Assembly: GCA_965263035.1 (NCBI GenBank)
Contig: OZ253580.1
Span: 416,001 to 480,000, forward strand
From: Acidobacteriota bacterium
GTDB taxonomy: Bacteria; Acidobacteriota; UBA6911; RPQK01; JAJDTT01
DNA: 64,000 bases
Direction: 5' to 3'
This document shows positions 15,302 through 46,590 of the stretch, in pieces. How positions within the stretch are numbered: the stretch's first letter is position 1; each line of letters opens with the position of its first letter. Position numbers and translations under genes: made by a program. The notes below the pieces were generated by a model. It had not been told where the DNA came from and made no database searches. It saw only the letters and a list, made by a program, of their open reading frames with translations.

Positions 15302-17816
15302 ATGAAGCTTCAATCCGGAACCCTCCTCATCCTGATCCTGGCCGCCTGCCCTCTGATGGGCCAGGTCCAGGATGACGCAACGGCCGACGGGTCGTTGCTC
15401 TTCCGGGAGACCATTCAGCCGATACTCCAGAACCGCTGCCTGGCTTGCCACAACCAGAAGGTTCGCAGTAGCGGCCTCTCGCTGGAGAACCGCTCGGAGA
15501 TCCTCACGGGGGGAACTCGGGGTCCCGCCATTCTGCCCGGAGACTCGGAGCAGAGCCGGCTGATCCAGGCGTTGGCCCATTCGTCCGATCTGAATATGCC
15601 TCCCGGAGGCAAGCTGCCCGAGGCGGAGATCCACGCACTGCGTCAATGGGTGGTCCTGGGGGCTCCCTGGGACGAGCCGGGCGATTCCGGCAAGGGCGGT
15701 CACTGGTCATTCCGGCCCGTACGGCGTCCCGTGCCACCGCAGGTGTCCGACGCGCAGTGGGTCCGGAATCCCATCGACCGGTTCATCCTGGAGCGGCTGG
15801 AGGAGGAGGGCCTGGAACCGTCCCCGAAAGCCCCCCGGATCACGCTGTTGCGCCGCCTCAGCCTGGATCTTCTGGGCCTGCCTCCCTCACCGGCCGCCGT
15901 CGACGGTTTCCTTGCGGACACTCGCCCCGGCGCCTACGAGCGGCTCGTGGAGCGCTTGTTGGCTTCGCCCCATTACGGAGAGCGGTGGGGCCGGCACTGG
16001 CTGGACGCGGCCCGCTACGCCGACTCCGACGGGTTCTCCGACGGACCCCGGCAGATCTGGATGTACCGCGACTGGGTGGTCCGGTCCCTGAATCGCGACC
16101 TGCCGTTCGACCGGTTCACCATCCAGCAGTTGGCAGGCGACCTGATTCCGGATGCTTCCAAGAAACAGATCGTCGCCACCGGATTCCACCGGAATACCCT
16201 CCTGAACCAGGAGGGGGGCATTGACGTGGAGCAGTATCGCGTCGAGCGGGTCGTGGACCGGGTCGAGACCACCGGAGCCACCTTTCTGGGTCTGACCGTC
16301 GGTTGCGCCCGCTGCCATGACCACAAGTACGATCCCGTCTCTCAACAGGAATTCTTCCAGCTCTATCTCTTTCTTCAACAACATCGAGGAGAGGAGCCCC
16401 GAACTGGAAAAGACGGACCGGCCCCGTCACTGGCCCTTCCTGGAGTTTGGGAGCGACGAAGAGTTCACCCGGCGAGACATCATCCGGAGTCAGGTGGCGC
16501 TCCTGGAGGAAGAGCTGAAGACCTACGAGAAGGAGCTTCTGGCCCGTTTGCCGCAATGGGAAAAGGAACTGGACCCGGAGCGGCGCCGGGCGTTCCCTCC
16601 CGAGGTTCAGAGGATTCTGGCGCTCCCGGCCGAGGAGCGGAACGAGATTCAACTCAAGACGTTGCATCTGCTCCACAAGGAACAGGATCTGGGCCATTCG
16701 ACCCGGAAGGCCGGCATCGACTCCCTGAAGCAGGCCGAACCGAAGTTGCCCAGCACCCTGGTGATGAAGGAACTGGCGGAGCCCCGGGAGGCCTATATCC
16801 ATCTGGGAGGCGAGTTCACCCGCAGGGGAGACCCGGTCCAGCCGGACGTGCCCGCCGTCCTGCCTCCGCTGAAGGCCCAATCCAGACCCAATCGGCTGGA
16901 CCTGGCGCGGTGGTTGGTGGACCCAGGACATCCTCTCACCGCCCGAGTCACGGTGAACCGCATCTGGCAACGCTACTTCGGGGCCGGCCTGGTGGACACC
17001 GAGAACGACTTCGGAATTCAGGGGACCCGTCCCTCCCACCCGGCACTCCTGGACTGGCTGGCCTCGGAACTGATTCGCAAGGATTGGAGCCTGAAGGCGA
17101 TGCACCGGCTGATCGTCACCTCGGAGGCCTACCGGCAGTCGTCCCGGCACCGGGACGATGCCGCCAAGCTGGATTCAGCCAATCGGCTGCTGGCCCGGCA
17201 ACACCGCCTGCGCCTGGAGTCGGAGGTGGTGCGGGACGTGTCCCTGGCCGCCAGCGGTCTATGGAACCGGGCCCTCGGCGGCCCCCCCGTCTTTCCTCCC
17301 CAACCTCAGGGGAGCAGCCGTCTGGGCCATTCCAAGCGAGCCTGGATGACCAGCCAGGGTGAGGACCGGTTCCGCCGGGGCCTCTACACCCATTTCTGGC
17401 GCTCGACGCCACATCCCGCCCTGATGGTCTTCGACAGTCCCAACGGAATCACCACCTGCACCCGGCGGAGCCGCTCCACCTCGCCCCTGCAGGCGCTGAC
17501 CCTGCTCAACGACGAGGCCTTCTACGAGTTCGCCCAAGGCCTTGCCCACCGGGTACTCAGGGAGGGCCCGGACCAGGACGCGGAACGCATCGACTACACC
17601 TTCCGCGTTTGTCTATCGAGACCGCCCAGCGCAGAGGAGAGCGCTCAGTTGATGCGCTTTCTGGACCACCAGAGGAACGATCTGGCACGGCGCCCGCGGG
17701 AAGCCCGATCATTGCTTTCCCTGGAATCGGAGGACGAAGATCCGCAGGAACTCGCGGCTTGGACCCTCCTCTCCAGCGTGCTCCTGAACCTGGACGAGTT
17801 CATCACCCGGGAGTGA
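15302..17816 (+). pseudogene. Second planctomycete cytochrome c / DUF1549 / DUF1553 gene with a 1-nt insertion (or read error)
   Basis: CLACH and CARCHDHKYDP in frame 1; continues SFFNNIEE..LLNLDEFITRE in another frame after one extra C near 16367. Confidence 0.85.
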
Positions 17817-17821
17817 ACCCC

Positions 17822-19273
17822 ATGCAGAGCTACGAACCCTGGCATCTTGCGGAGACACGGCGGCACTTTTTCAGCCGTTGCTCCCTCGGTTTGGGACAGG
17901 TCGCCCTGGCCTCCCTTCTCAGTGACGGGCGGCTCCTCGCCGGGAAACCGGATCTGGCGAATCCCTTGGCGGCCCGGGATCCCCATTTCCCCGCCAAAGT
18001 CCGAAACGTCATCTATCTCTACATGGTGGGAGGACCCAGCCAACTGGATCTCTTCGACCACAAGCCGAAGCTCCGGGAATTGGACAGCCAACCACTTCCC
18101 GATTCCTTCCTGAAGGACAAGCGCTTCGCTTTCATGGACTTCTTCACCAAAGAGAAACCCCGGCTTCTGGGTTCGGAACGGGAGTTCGAACCTTACGGCC
18201 AATCGGGCAAGACCATCTCCGAGTGCCTGCCCCACACCGCGTCCGTCGTCGACGACCTGGCGTTCATCTCCACCGTCTCCACCGACAACTTCAACCACGG
18301 GCCGGCCCAGATCTTCAGCAATACCGGGTCTCCGCGGCCCGGGAGCCCCAGCATGGGTTCCTGGATCAGCTACGGCCTGGGAACCGAGTCCCAGGACCTG
18401 CCCGCCTTCGTGGTCCTCCAGTCCGGCCGGCAAGGTCCCCGAGCCGGCGTCTCCAACTGGGAGAGCGGCTTTCTCCCCACCATCCACCAGGGGATCCCCT
18501 TCTTCAGCAGCGGCGATCCCATCCTGAACCTGGCGAGTCCCGCCGGTATGAGCCGGCAGCGGCAGGCGAGCCGGGTGGAGGCGATCCGCAACCTGAACCT
18601 GGCCCGGTTGGCCGAGACGGGGGATCCCGAGATCGCCACCCGGATCGCTTCCTACGAGATGGCCTACCGGATGCAGACCAGCGGTCCGGAGCTCATCGAC
18701 TACTCCAGCGAGACCCGGCAGACCCTGGACCTGTACGGTGCCGAACCGGGAGCCCGGTCATTCGCCAACAACTGCCTTTTGGCCCGGCGCCTGGTGGAGC
18801 GGGGGGTCCGTTTCGTCCAGCTCTACCACGCCGAGTGGGACCATCACGGAAACGCCCACGTGAACCTGCAGGAGGGGCTGGACAAGGTCACCAGGCAGAC
18901 CGACCGCCCCTCCGCGGCCCTGGTCCGGGACCTGAAACAACGAGGACTCCTGGATTCCACGCTGGTGGTCTGGGGAGGAGAGTTCGGCCGGACTCCCATG
19001 GGGGAGAAACGGGACTCCGTCGGACGCAACCACCACATCGACGCCTACACCATGTGGTTCGCCGGGGGCGGCATCCGGCCCGGTCAGACGATTGGAAGGA
19101 CGGACGACCTGGGCTTTTCTCCGGTGGAGGATCCGGTCCACGTCCATGACATCCACGCCACCATCCTGCATCTGCTGGGACTGGATCACACCCGGCTCAC
19201 GTTCCGTTTCCAGGGACGGGAGTTCCGTCTCACCGACGTCGCCGGCAACGTGATCGAGAAACTGTTGGCATAG
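17822..19273 (+). CDS. DUF1501 protein
   Basis: TRRHFF leader, VIYLYMVGGPSQLDLFDHKP, WGGEFGRTP; paralog of 7501-8952. Confidence 0.92.
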   Translation: MQSYEPWHLAETRRHFFSRCSLGLGQVALASLLSDGRLLAGKPDLANPLAARDPHFPAKVRNVIYLYMVGGPSQLDLFDHKPKLRELDSQPLPDSFLKDKRFAFMDFFTKEKPRLLGSEREFEPYGQSGKTISECLPHTASVVDDLAFISTVSTDNFNHGPAQIFSNTGSPRPGSPSMGSWISYGLGTESQDLPAFVVLQSGRQGPRAGVSNWESGFLPTIHQGIPFFSSGDPILNLASPAGMSRQRQASRVEAIRNLNLARLAETGDPEIATRIASYEMAYRMQTSGPELIDYSSETRQTLDLYGAEPGARSFANNCLLARRLVERGVRFVQLYHAEWDHHGNAHVNLQEGLDKVTRQTDRPSAALVRDLKQRGLLDSTLVVWGGEFGRTPMGEKRDSVGRNHHIDAYTMWFAGGGIRPGQTIGRTDDLGFSPVEDPVHVHDIHATILHLLGLDHTRLTFRFQGREFRLTDVAGNVIEKLLA

Positions 19274-19322: not shown

Positions 19323-20981
19323 ATGAAAGCCGCCATCTATCGGGGTATCGGGCGAATCGGTCTGCAGGAAGTGGAGCGGCTTCCCCCTCCGCCCGGATAC
19401 GTCACCATCGATACGCGGCAGACGGGCATCTGCGGCAGCGACCTCCACGTCTACCGGGGACACTGGCCTCAGCCCGCGACCTTGGCGCTGGGGCACGAGA
19501 CCTCCGGCGTCGTGGTGGAACTGGGCGAGGGGGTCTCGGGAGTCGAGCCCGGAGACCGGGTCGCCATCGAGTGCTTCTCCCACTGCGGGCGGTGCCGCTA
19601 CTGTCGGGGCGGCCACTACAATCACTGTCTGGAACGGCAATGGGTGTCGCAGGATACGCACGGAGGTTTTTCCGAGTTCACGACCGCTCATGCCTCGGCT
19701 CTCTTCCGGCTCCCTCCGGGCCTGAGCTTTGAAGAAGGGGCCCTGGTCGAGCCCCTGGCCGTGGGTTGCCGGGCGGTGGGTCAGGCAGGCGCGACCTGGC
19801 GGGATCGGGTGGCGATCCTGGGCGGCGGAACCATCGGCCAGTGCTGCCTGGCGGCGGCCAAGGCAGCCAACGTGCGGGAGACCTGGATCACCGTCAAGTA
19901 CCCGCAACAGGCCCGGCTGGCCAGAGATCTGGGCGCCGACCACGTGTTCGTGCTGGGTGGGAGCGACCTCGACGACTGGGTGAGCGATCTGGCCCGGGGT
20001 CCACGGCCGGACGCGGTGATCGAGACGGTGGGCGGAGGAGGCAATTTCGATCTCGCCCTTCAGATTGTCCGGCCCCGCGGCGTGGTGGTTCTGTTGGCCG
20101 GCTATCCGGAGCCGGTGGAGGTGGACCTGGGACGGGTTCTGGAATCCGAGGCGGTGGTAACCGGATCCCACTGCTACGCCTCGACCGGATTGGACACCGA
20201 CTTCGATCGGGTCGGGCGCAGGGGATTGCGCCCCTGCACCCTCCCACACCACCGGACGTACCGTTTTCAGTATCCGGCGGTTGGAGTCACCCGAGGCTCT
20301 TTCGAGCCTCGTACAGGGCCTTTCTTTCCGGTTTCCGCCGCCGCTGAGACTTGATCTCCGCCCTTCCGGCTTGCCGGGCTCCACCCGTGGGCCTTCCATG
20401 CCGGGTCCGAGGGGCCTCCCCCCGCCCCGTTTTCGGAGGTAGTTGCGATCCCGCTGACGAGTCCACCATAGGGCCAGTCCGACTCCTTCGGTCCTTCGCT
20501 CCACCGGCATTACCCGGCTTCTTCGCTACTACGACCTCTGCTGACTTCTCAAGGGCTCTCACCCTTGAGATCTCCCCGAGTAAGGTGCTGCATCTTTCCC
20601 CCCGGGCCGCCCGGCTCTACCTGATGCGTCTGGATGGGGTTCGGGTTTCGCTGTTGCTCGCCAGCTCACCGCCCGCACCCGGCCTCACTGCCGGTTCGTG
20701 TTCCTGCGGTCGTGGGTTTGCCTTCCGCTTCCTTCAGCTTCACCTCGCGGCTACGCCTTGCGGTTCGGCTAGGGTTGGTCCCATCACCTCCCTTGGGATC
20801 TTTCATCCCTTAGATACAGCCCATGTCGGGCGCACGAGCGGCCATCGACCTGATGGCCACCGGCCGGGTGGACGCGACCCGCCTCGTCACCCACCGGTTC
20901 CCTCTGGAAGCGGTCGAGGAAGCCTTCCGCGTCGCAGCCGACAAGTCCTCCGGGTCCATCAAGGTCCACCTCTGCCAGTGA
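19323..20981 (+). pseudogene. Zn-dependent alcohol/polyol dehydrogenase interrupted by an antisense group II intron
   Basis: GICGSDLH, LGHE, CGRCRYCRGGHYNHC, GGGTIG. Removing 20206-20835 restores DTDFG-AAIDLMATGRVDATRLVTHRFPLEAVEEAFRVAADKSSGSIKVHLCQ*. Confidence 0.92.
20206..20835 (-). mobile_element. Group IIC intron ribozyme without an RT ORF (630 nt)
   Basis: 5' GTGCGCCCGACATGG; IIC-like blocks GAAGGAAGCGGAAGGCAAAC, AGGAACACGAAC, CTTACTCGGGGAGATCT, GAGAAGTCAGCAGAGGTCGTAGTA; domain V AACCGCCGGATACTGAAAACGGTACGTCCGGTGGT; domain VI and end ...CCCGACCCGAT. Confidence 0.93.
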
Positions 20982-30013: not shown

Positions 30014-30253
30014 GGAGGGACGGTTTTCTTGCCGCCCTTTGCGGGGGACAGTCTTGTCCCCCGCTGGGAGGGGCGACTTTCTTGTCGCCCATTGGGACAG
30101 GCGGCTTTCTTGCCGCCTGCTCTTCCATGTTGCTATGCGATTCGGTGGCCTCAAAGTGTAGGAAAGTGTAAAGGGGGGACTCCGTTCCCCCCTGGTCGGC
30201 GACAAGAAAGTCGCCGCTCCACCCCCCATCGGCGACAAGAAAGGCGCCGCTCC
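30014..30253. repeat. REP/BIME-like palindromic array A
   Basis: Several GGA(G/C)-GGCGAC-TTTCTT-GTCGCC hairpins in both orientations plus a GGGGGGAC..CCCCCC unit. Confidence 0.85.
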
Positions 30254-44874: not shown

Positions 44875-45026
44875 GGAGCGGCGGCTTTCTTGCTGCCGAA
44901 CAGGGGGTAAAGGGGGGACGGCAAGTCCCCCCTTTACAGTCTCGTTCGGTCGCGTGCGGAGCGTGTGACGAGGTGAACGAGTAGTGTGTCCAGGAAATCT
45001 GAGCGGGCGCTTTTCTGCCGCCCTCC
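44875..45026. repeat. REP/BIME-like palindromic array B
   Basis: GGAGCGGCGGCTTTCTTGCTGCCG plus GTAAAGGGGGGACGGCAAGTCCCCCCTTTAC. Confidence 0.8.
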
Positions 45027-46345: not shown

Positions 46346-46524
46346 GGACGAGCGACATTCTTGTCGCCTGCCAGGAGGGGCGACTTTCTTGTCGCCCACT
46401 GGGACAGGCGACTTTCTTGTCGCCTGCTCCGGACTGAAGAGGGGGGACTTGCCGTCCCCCCTACCCCCCCTGAGCGGCGACAAGAAAGTCGCCGCTCCCG
46501 CTCGGCGGCTGGAAAGCCGCCGCT
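46346..46524. repeat. REP/BIME-like palindromic array C
   Basis: Shares ~55 nearly identical bp with array A; its right half is the reverse complement of array B. Confidence 0.85.
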
Positions 46525-46590
46525 TGCGGGTGCTACCATTTGCCGCGATTTTTTCGCTTTTTGGTAACAGAACCGAGGGGGTAGAGAGAC

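Follow-up and report, generated by a model that had tools for sequence, protein, structure and literature searches.

How does a group II intron without a reverse transcriptase (RT) gene come to interrupt a dehydrogenase gene, and on the strand from which it cannot be removed with that gene's transcript? The locus lies in a 64,000-nt stretch of an Acidobacteriota metagenome-assembled genome (MAG; contig OZ253580.1, positions 416,001 to 480,000), called the window here; all coordinates without a contig name are window coordinates. The intron occupies 20206-20835 on the minus strand of the window, as a complete group II ribozyme of 630 nt. Our answer, to which we assign a probability of roughly 0.85, is that this RT-less element type (termed the mini) is a non-autonomous class IIC intron with a family of about 22 copies in the host genome (G000, a single contig, C1, of 6.198 Mb), mobilized in trans by the intron-encoded protein (IEP) of two full-length sisters, FL1 and FL2. 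An RT encoded elsewhere had already been proposed as the source of mobility in a first-pass annotation made from the letters of the window, and 19 intact and three broken copies, together with two RT-encoding sisters, support that proposal.

The intron and its insertion

The same annotation had described an RT-less 630-nt group IIC intron with intact GTGCG..AT ends, domain I-III blocks and domains V and VI, and sequence inspection, Rfam models and a six-domain fold agree with this description. Rfam matched group-II-D1D4-3 (RF02001; 20587-20754, minus strand, 85.5 bits against a cut-off of 32), group-II-D1D4-1 (RF01998; 20491-20584, minus strand, 45.3 bits, cut-off 35) and, marginally, Intron_gpII for domains D5 and D6 (RF00029; 20206-20282, minus strand, 40.4 bits, cut-off 40); a whole-window scan at gathering thresholds listed only the two D1D4 models and not Intron_gpII. 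The 5′ end GTGCG (20835-20831) and the 3′ end CCCGAT (last base 20206) fit GUGYG...AY. A consensus fold computed with RNAalifold on five ORF-less copies from four species comprises D1 to D6 with 187 predicted pairs, eight of which carry compensatory changes in the same alignment from which the structure was predicted. When D5 (CCGCCGGAU) is aligned to the Rfam consensus (GAGCCGUAU), CGC stands where the consensus has the AGC catalytic triad, and CGC is typical of class IIC in the literature on O. iheyensis. The ribozyme is compact, with 349 nt in D1-D3 and about 77 nt in D5-D6; the size criterion for class IIC is about 400-430 nt outside D4. The element is an RT-less class IIC group II intron, as judged by the endonuclease (En)-less class-C IEP of its sisters, targets made of a hairpin and a short intron-binding site 1 (IBS1), the lack of a fixed IBS2, the compact ribozyme and the CGC in D5.

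The interrupted gene encodes a zinc-type alcohol dehydrogenase whose orthologs occur at 90-98% identity in all eight other genomes of the genus. The orthologous site was empty in each of the seven congener loci read, with the sequence continuous across the junction and no bases duplicated or lost. In G007, the closest of the congeners discussed here (G001, G003, G004, G007 and G008), the 45 bases to the left of the junction are identical and one of 45 differs on the right (...gacttcg before the junction, gagcggccatcgacctg... after it). Because the site is empty in all seven relatives, the insertion is both precise and recent, and younger than the split from G007. Exact excision without target duplication, a recent date and an orientation antisense to the host gene had all been claimed in the first-pass annotation, and each is borne out by these comparisons, with the intron on the minus and the dehydrogenase on the plus strand. 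In this orientation the intron can therefore not be spliced from the dehydrogenase mRNA. The interrupted frame reads 49 codons into the intron and then stops; the last ∼49 residues of the enzyme would be exchanged for 49 foreign ones, presumably with loss of function. A dehydrogenase "pseudogene" annotated at this place would stand for a recent, probable insertional knockout. A paralog, 36% identical, is encoded elsewhere in the genome.

Copies of the intron, their full-length sisters and their relatives

A BLAST search of the host genome with the 630-nt intron returned 34 matches. They include 19 intact minis of 630-632 nt (97.1-100% identity), three minis interrupted by insertion sequence (IS) elements, and two full-length elements of 1848 nt (FL1, C1:529488-531335; FL2, C1:2572796-2574643); both the further short copies and the RT-bearing parent that the first-pass annotation had thought worth a BLASTN search are thus present. 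One 51-nt fragment and four 41-nt matches from another intron family were also found. Each copy has its own 3′ flank, and boundaries are base-exact in all 24 elements (19 + 3 + 2). The 19 intact copies vary at 47 alignment columns, which form two main haplotypes and mosaics of them, and five copies are identical. Over the D4 hairpin junction, as defined on the window copy against FL1, all 19 align with one variable position.

FL1 and FL2, which differ at 6 nt, share an open frame that encodes an identical RT/maturase, with RVT_1 and GIIM domains in Pfam and a TIGR04416 score of 362 bits; Pfam gave no endonuclease domain in this protein. Its best match in the PDB is the RT of GsI-IIC (451 bits; query residues 87-482 on chain residues 2-399), and it scores 346 bits against 7uim ("Group II intron reverse transcriptase/maturase", which we take to be the IIC intron RT of Eubacterium rectale), 124 against LtrA and 110 against 6me0. 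By these relative scores against solved structures, the protein appears to be an En-less IEP of class C. The genes in FL1 and FL2 are the only class-C IEP genes in the host genome. Translation most likely starts at FL position 538, with the ATG that encodes M89 of the open frame, because similarity to the GsI-IIC RT begins there, because the upstream ATG is absent from the full-length intron of G003, and because the comparison of G000 with G003 gives a third-position excess within the ORF (36/22/63) and none upstream of it (7/11/10). The RT ORF so delimited measures 1230 nt (FL positions 538-1767), and the mini has a GAAA-capped hairpin in its place.

Outside domain IV, the two element types are nearly the same molecule. 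The window copy is identical to FL1 over positions 1-325 and the last 91 nt, and 2 of 433 core positions differ (326-327); domain IV is the only part in which mini and full-length sisters differ much. Because FL1 shares diagnostic alleles with minis of haplotype A, FL2 shares alleles at positions 149, 210, 212, 619 and 621 with minis of haplotype B, and several minis are mosaic, the cores of autonomous and non-autonomous copies appear to have been exchanged or homogenized, with domain IV staying distinct. Either gene conversion or template switching by the RT could have been the route. The genome also encodes a second family of group II RTs, about 34% identical to the class-C IEP and present in three to four copies (C1:983841-984845, 5053528-5054094, 5537537-5538541 and 5842122-5843126), which shares with the mini only a 41-nt stretch (mini positions 303-343).

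In a survey of 40 related genomes and G000, some intron match was obtained in 19 of the 41. Complete ORF-less copies are present in G001 (648 nt, 91% identity), G003 (657 nt, 88%) and G008 (650 nt, 87%), and full-length copies in G003 (five read) and G004. The mini of G003 keeps the first four and about the last eight ORF codons, that of G008 has a deletion that begins immediately ahead of the ATG and extends to the last six codons, and that of G001 has the domain IV type and stem of G000 with a larger loop. Because the deletion junctions differ among G000, G003 and G008, the RT ORF was lost at least three times in the genus, each time by near-exact removal. Recurrence with nearly identical end points hints, in a more speculative reading, at a deletion route inherent to the element, for example a jump by the RT from one side of the base of the domain IV stem to the other. 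The exact G000-type junction was not found in a scan of the genomes of other species, and a scan with the exact D5 sequence returned 12 loci, every one in a record titled as a MAG of Acidobacteriota or Candidatus Aminicenantes. G001, a genome of one contig that is 99% complete, has a single mini (C1:4991714-4992361 of that genome); no class-C IEP was found there, the best RT match being 36% identical, and this mini is an orphan intron without a cognate IEP. No IEP was found in the G008 assembly of 670 contigs, in which many intron fragments lie at contig ends.

Several copies in the host genome have since been damaged. Two minis (C1:3067627-3070027 and C1:3923178-3925592) are split by the same IS3-type element, which encodes a 342-aa transposase with HTH_21 and rve domains, at different intron positions (after nt 264 and at about nt 350). 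In a third (C1:5180457-5185638), nt 121-264 are replaced by a 4.7-kb insert that carries a 694-aa large serine recombinase (Resolvase, Recombinase and Zn_ribbon_recom) and IS21-type IstB and IstA-like genes. The 51-nt fragment is a relic of the intron 5′ end (94% identity, C1:56917-56967), and a 34-residue fragment of an IEP (79% identity) remains at C1:1998664-1998765.

Target sites, replication strand and features of the locus

All 24 elements stand directly after a DNA hairpin followed by GCTC, and C is the next base in 23 of them. The hairpin is a repetitive extragenic palindrome (REP)-like repeat, GGCGRC-AAGAAA-GYCGCC, at 18 sites, and the other six have different stems; with at least five stem sequences among the 24 sites there is no fixed IBS2. 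Unlike classical intrinsic terminators, the REP-like targets have no T-run. The host genome contains 92 strict copies of the repeat (17 occupied), or 213 when up to three substitutions are allowed (18 occupied), and C follows 187 of the 195 empty motif sites.

Exon-binding site 1 (EBS1) of the intron, GAGC, pairs with the IBS1 GCTC in all 24 elements of the host genome. In the minis of G001, G003 and G008 and in five full-length introns of G003 the EBS1 loop has GAGG, and all eight elements, the six of G003 among them, follow a hairpin and CCTC. The EBS1 assignment is supported by this covariation of EBS1 with IBS1 between species. Recognition looks like a combination of structure, the hairpin, with a 4-nt pairing, and hairpin recognition plus a short pairing is described for IIC introns (extract of PMC12584367). 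As single-stranded DNA (ssDNA), the target in the window has a folding energy of -8.8 kcal/mol (z = -2.9), much like the -8.6 of the canonical REP-type targets, and we propose that the intron in the window went off target, into a non-REP hairpin that resembles the usual ones.

Orientation relative to replication is also biased. Cumulative GC skew is lowest at 2.9 Mb (its minimum) and highest at 5.85 Mb, and dnaA lies at 2,872,067. Taking a single origin at the skew minimum as given, the sense strand of the intron is on the lagging-strand template in 20 of 24 elements (binomial p = 0.0015). This orientation is found at 15 of the 18 occupied motif sites and at 61 of the 195 empty ones (Fisher p = 2e-5); relative to empty sites that end in GCTC followed by C (37 of 111 in the favored orientation), p = 1e-4. 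A lagging-strand bias is expected of En-less introns that prime from nascent lagging strands. For bacterial-C introns a strong bias of this kind has been reported (Miura et al. 2022, extract of PMC8919778).

The features of the locus are collected in Table 1. The 60-codon open frame within the intron was first recorded as an ORF without RT motifs. The absence of RT motifs stands, since Pfam gave no match in the frame (20287-20469), but the frame is not a gene: it covers the noncoding 5′ arm of domain IV and the closing hairpin. Three of the 19 intact copies have lost its ATG or carry a frameshift in it, it is not preserved in the minis of G001, G003 and G008, and its counterpart in the full-length intron, located upstream of the RT start, has no third-codon-position bias. 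We rejected a gene or an RT remnant on the grounds of the missing Pfam match, poor retention and lack of codon bias, and treat the frame as a chance opening in GC-rich RNA.

Table 1. Coordinates of the intron, its domains, its target and the interrupted gene in the window.
Feature	Position	Strand	Basis
Zinc-type alcohol dehydrogenase gene, N-terminal 294 codons	19323-20205	+	ADH_N, ADH_zinc_N (Pfam)
Detached 3′ portion of the dehydrogenase gene, about 48 codons and stop	20836-20981	+	Continuous with the 5′ part in 7/7 orthologs read
Whole intron, GTGCG...CCCGAT	20206-20835	-	Rfam; ends fixed by 24 aligned copies and empty orthologous sites
Domain I, intron positions 6-261	20575-20830	-	RNAalifold consensus; RF02001 match
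EBS1 GAGC, loop of hairpin GCTG-GCGAGCAA-CAGC (20650-20665)	20656-20659	-	Fold; cross-species covariation
Domain II, short hairpin with GAGA loop, positions 262-293	20543-20574	-	Consensus fold
Domain III, positions 300-346	20490-20536	-	Consensus fold; RF01998 match
Domain IV without RT gene, positions 350-553	20283-20486	-	Consensus fold; mini/FL1 alignment
60-codon open frame, judged noncoding	20287-20469	-	Pfam; conservation across copies and species
Hairpin GAGGCTC-GAAA-GAGCCTC (7 bp, GAAA cap) in place of the RT ORF	20293-20310	-	Mini/FL1 pairwise alignment
Domain V, 34 nt, positions 555-588	20248-20281	-	Rfam alignment; consensus fold
Domain VI, positions 590-628; on its 3′ strand a GA, 7-8 nt from the 3′ end, is unpaired	20208-20246	-	Consensus fold
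Candidate branch-point A, 7 nt from the 3′ end	20212	-	Consensus fold
First 3′-exon base C, candidate IBS3	20205	-	C in 23/24 elements
Target hairpin GTGGCCATC-AGGTC-GATGGCCGC (20838-20860), overlapping IBS1 GCTC (20836-20839)	20836-20860	-	ssDNA fold

The window copy is the one verified insertion within a gene. Pfam was run on five flank translations from three of the 23 other sites (C1:3923178, 2272572 and 37528), and the sole match was an SDR gene beside 3923178, whose domain starts about 250 nt past the insertion; the intron at that site therefore stands upstream of the gene. Elsewhere in the window, a 554-codon ORF, perhaps DUF1501/sulfatase-like to judge by its residues, lies upstream of the dehydrogenase (17609-19273, plus strand). 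Ten REP-like repeats of the form GGCGRC-AAGAAA-GYCGCC-(G/C)CTC, with none expected by chance, are clustered in inverted orientations at 30015-30252, 44876-44897 and 46375-46525; two of them are perfect empty intron targets on the plus strand, the disfavored one in this replichore.

Explanations weighed, and comparison with known systems

If the mini is mobilized in trans, a copy would be transcribed by read-through from a host promoter, and the class-C IEP of FL1/FL2 would bind the ribozyme core and the arm of domain IV that is retained, and would aid splicing. The ribonucleoprotein would then reverse-splice into ssDNA just 3′ of a DNA hairpin, at a site chosen by the hairpin, the 4-bp EBS1-IBS1 pairing (GAGC/GCTC) and C at +1; about 200 REP-like hairpins, GGCGRC-AAGAAA-GYCGCC-GCTC, would be its usual targets. 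Because the IEP has no endonuclease domain, we propose that the nascent lagging strand at the replication fork primes cDNA synthesis. That G001, which has no class-C IEP, has just one mini of the same lineage is consistent with trans-mobilization.

Several points weigh against this scheme. Its steps, namely transcription, IEP binding, reverse splicing and lagging-strand priming, are deduced from anatomy and known IIC biology. The window copy may be silent, there being no minus-strand gene upstream of it. Group II IEPs bind domain IV, and domain IV is the most diverged part between mini and full-length intron: all 46 differences in the 531-column mini/FL1 alignment fall after position 325, so that recognition of the mini by the FL1/FL2 protein is assumed. 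The strand-bias result assumes a single origin at the skew minimum. The second RT family, with its 34% identity and three to four copies, may act as a helper. Finally, G003 has five full-length copies and only one mini; the presence of an IEP alone therefore does not yield expansion.

Could the short form instead be a local decay product, the remnant of a full-length intron that inserted here and lost its RT gene in situ? Near-precise losses of the ORF have happened independently in the genus, with different junctions in G003 and G008. However, rather than one short copy with full-length introns at the same site in relatives, we found 22 minis, and seven of seven relatives have no intron of any kind there. 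The 19 intact copies, which lie at different sites and each have their own 3′ flank, share the D4 hairpin junction stretch with one variable position, and the domain IV of the mini resembles that of the G001 mini and not that of the resident full-length introns. We give decay in place next to no credence. Multiplication as DNA, through recombination or duplication of segments made of REP and intron, would agree with the similar 5′ flanks, which also follow from the target being a repeat, and mosaic haplotypes indicate that copies do recombine. It is nevertheless highly improbable given the different 3′ flanks of all copies, the exact boundaries of all 24 elements, a window copy whose site is not a REP and is empty to the base in relatives, and a replication-strand bias relative to empty motif sites that DNA duplication would not be expected to produce.

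The identity of the driver, and the need for one, can be questioned as well. The second RT family (C1:983841, 5053528, 5537537 and 5842122) has three to four copies, and some Thermosynechococcus IEPs mobilize non-cognate introns (extract of PMC2882425), yet it is the cores of FL1 and FL2 that are nearly identical to the mini, with the same EBS1 and target rule, whereas the second family has only its 41-nt stretch in common with it; we consider it a very unlikely driver. The HYERs, ORF-less IIC introns that cleave ssDNA, raise a different prospect, in which the ribozyme hydrolyzes or reverse-splices into ssDNA without protein and spreads independently of a class-C IEP or serves a role of its own. 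HYER1 measures 637 nt and the mini 630 nt (extracts of PMC11754743 and PMC12990946), and G001 retains an intact-looking mini without a cognate IEP. An RNA insertion needs a reverse transcriptase to be fixed in DNA, however, and G001, with no cognate IEP, has one copy versus 22 in G000, which has the IEP. Dimerization of the HYER1 type through the palindrome GAGATCTC was considered and dropped, since in the consensus fold the palindrome is part of the stem that closes D1 and of the D2 stem, and not of a loop, and nothing else points to it. We judge this explanation unlikely; it and a driver from the second RT family are possible but less supported than trans-mobilization by FL1/FL2. The mini might also be a long-lived hyperparasite lineage and not a by-product, because its domain IV type is common to the G001 mini, because its core is homogenized with those of the drivers by recombination, and because it outnumbers its autonomous parent 11 to 1; the GAAA-capped ΔORF ribozyme might also have HYER-like, protein-free DNA cleavage. 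We offer this as a speculation, with doubts that outweigh our confidence.

The introns of Thermosynechococcus, the one proliferating case that is well studied, are reportedly of a different class; they are said to be IIB-like and of the CL lineage, with an En domain in the IEP and long EBS/IBS target pairings. The family described here is unlike them in its class (IIC), En-less IEP, hairpin and 4-nt target, REP-like landing pad and strong lagging-strand bias, and in its host, an Acidobacteriota MAG instead of a thermophilic cyanobacterium; its mobility is read from sequence. In T. elongatus, by contrast, mobilization of the ORF-less TeI3 introns by TeI4 "driver" IEPs was shown experimentally (Mohr et al. 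2010, PMC2882425; this and the articles below are cited from extracts). The likeness lies in a single ancestral ORF deletion followed by proliferation, in retention of proximal domain IV and in related IEP introns in the same genome, and the ratio of ORF-less to ORF-containing introns is 17 to 8 there and 22 to 2 here (PMC2882425). B.c.I7 of Bacillus cereus E33L shares near-precise ORF loss, near-identical copies and a complete copy in the same genome: three of its four copies lack the RT ORF, of which the first 13 and last 28 bp are kept (Tourasse and Kolsto 2008, PMC2504315). Those three are plasmid copies, whereas the 22 described here are chromosomal.

With GsI-IIC of Geobacillus stearothermophilus, whose RT is the nearest to the IEP of FL1 and FL2, and with other RT-bearing IIC introns the family shares insertion 3′ of DNA hairpins, a short IBS1 and high copy number. 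RT-bearing IIC introns take sites behind terminator hairpins (Robart 2007; Mohr 2018; both cited in PMC12584367) and are autonomous; the mini has no RT and targets REP-like repeats without a T-run. C.te.I1 of Clostridium tetani, which is ORF-less in a genome without an IEP (Zimmerly and Semper 2015, PMC4424553), resembles the lone mini of G001, and is unlike the family in G000 with its cognate IEPs and many copies. HYERs (Liu et al. 2024, Science, via PMC11754743, PMC12990946 and a bioRxiv preprint) are alike in being ORF-less IIC ribozymes of about 630 nt, and the remark in the first-pass annotation that ORF-less IIC introns are uncommon is at odds with their description. They are defined by protein-free hydrolytic cleavage of DNA and RNA, whereas here the genome encodes a cognate IEP and the pattern of copies indicates retromobility, a comparison made by description. 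In general, group II introns lacking an ORF are rare in bacteria and usually lie beside related IEP-encoding introns, trans-acting IEPs being the expected pattern (PMC4424553), and they are increased in certain genomes (PMC8919778). A keyword search, which does not show absence, gave no published description of a proliferated ORF-less IIC family at REP-like hairpins; the per-genome ORF-less counts of Miura et al. (2022) may hold comparable expansions.

Trans-mobilized ORF-less introns (Thermosynechococcus, B.c.I7) and ORF-less IIC introns (HYER) are thus known already from these sources. What is particular here is that the introns belong to class IIC, outnumber their autonomous parent 11:1 and land on REP-like repeats, that EBS1 has been retargeted between species, that congeners have lost the ORF repeatedly, and that the host is one of the Acidobacteriota. 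The family is a clean natural example within class IIC, a compact 630-nt ΔORF ribozyme with 22 copies and two identical driver genes. About 195 still-empty landing sites serve as an internal control, the strand bias can be measured within one chromosome, and the EBS1 change tracks the target change between species, so that trans-mobilization, retargeting and the origin of non-autonomous retroelements become testable together. As a GC-rich IIC ribozyme from an Acidobacteriota MAG, the mini is also a candidate for screening for activity of the HYER type.

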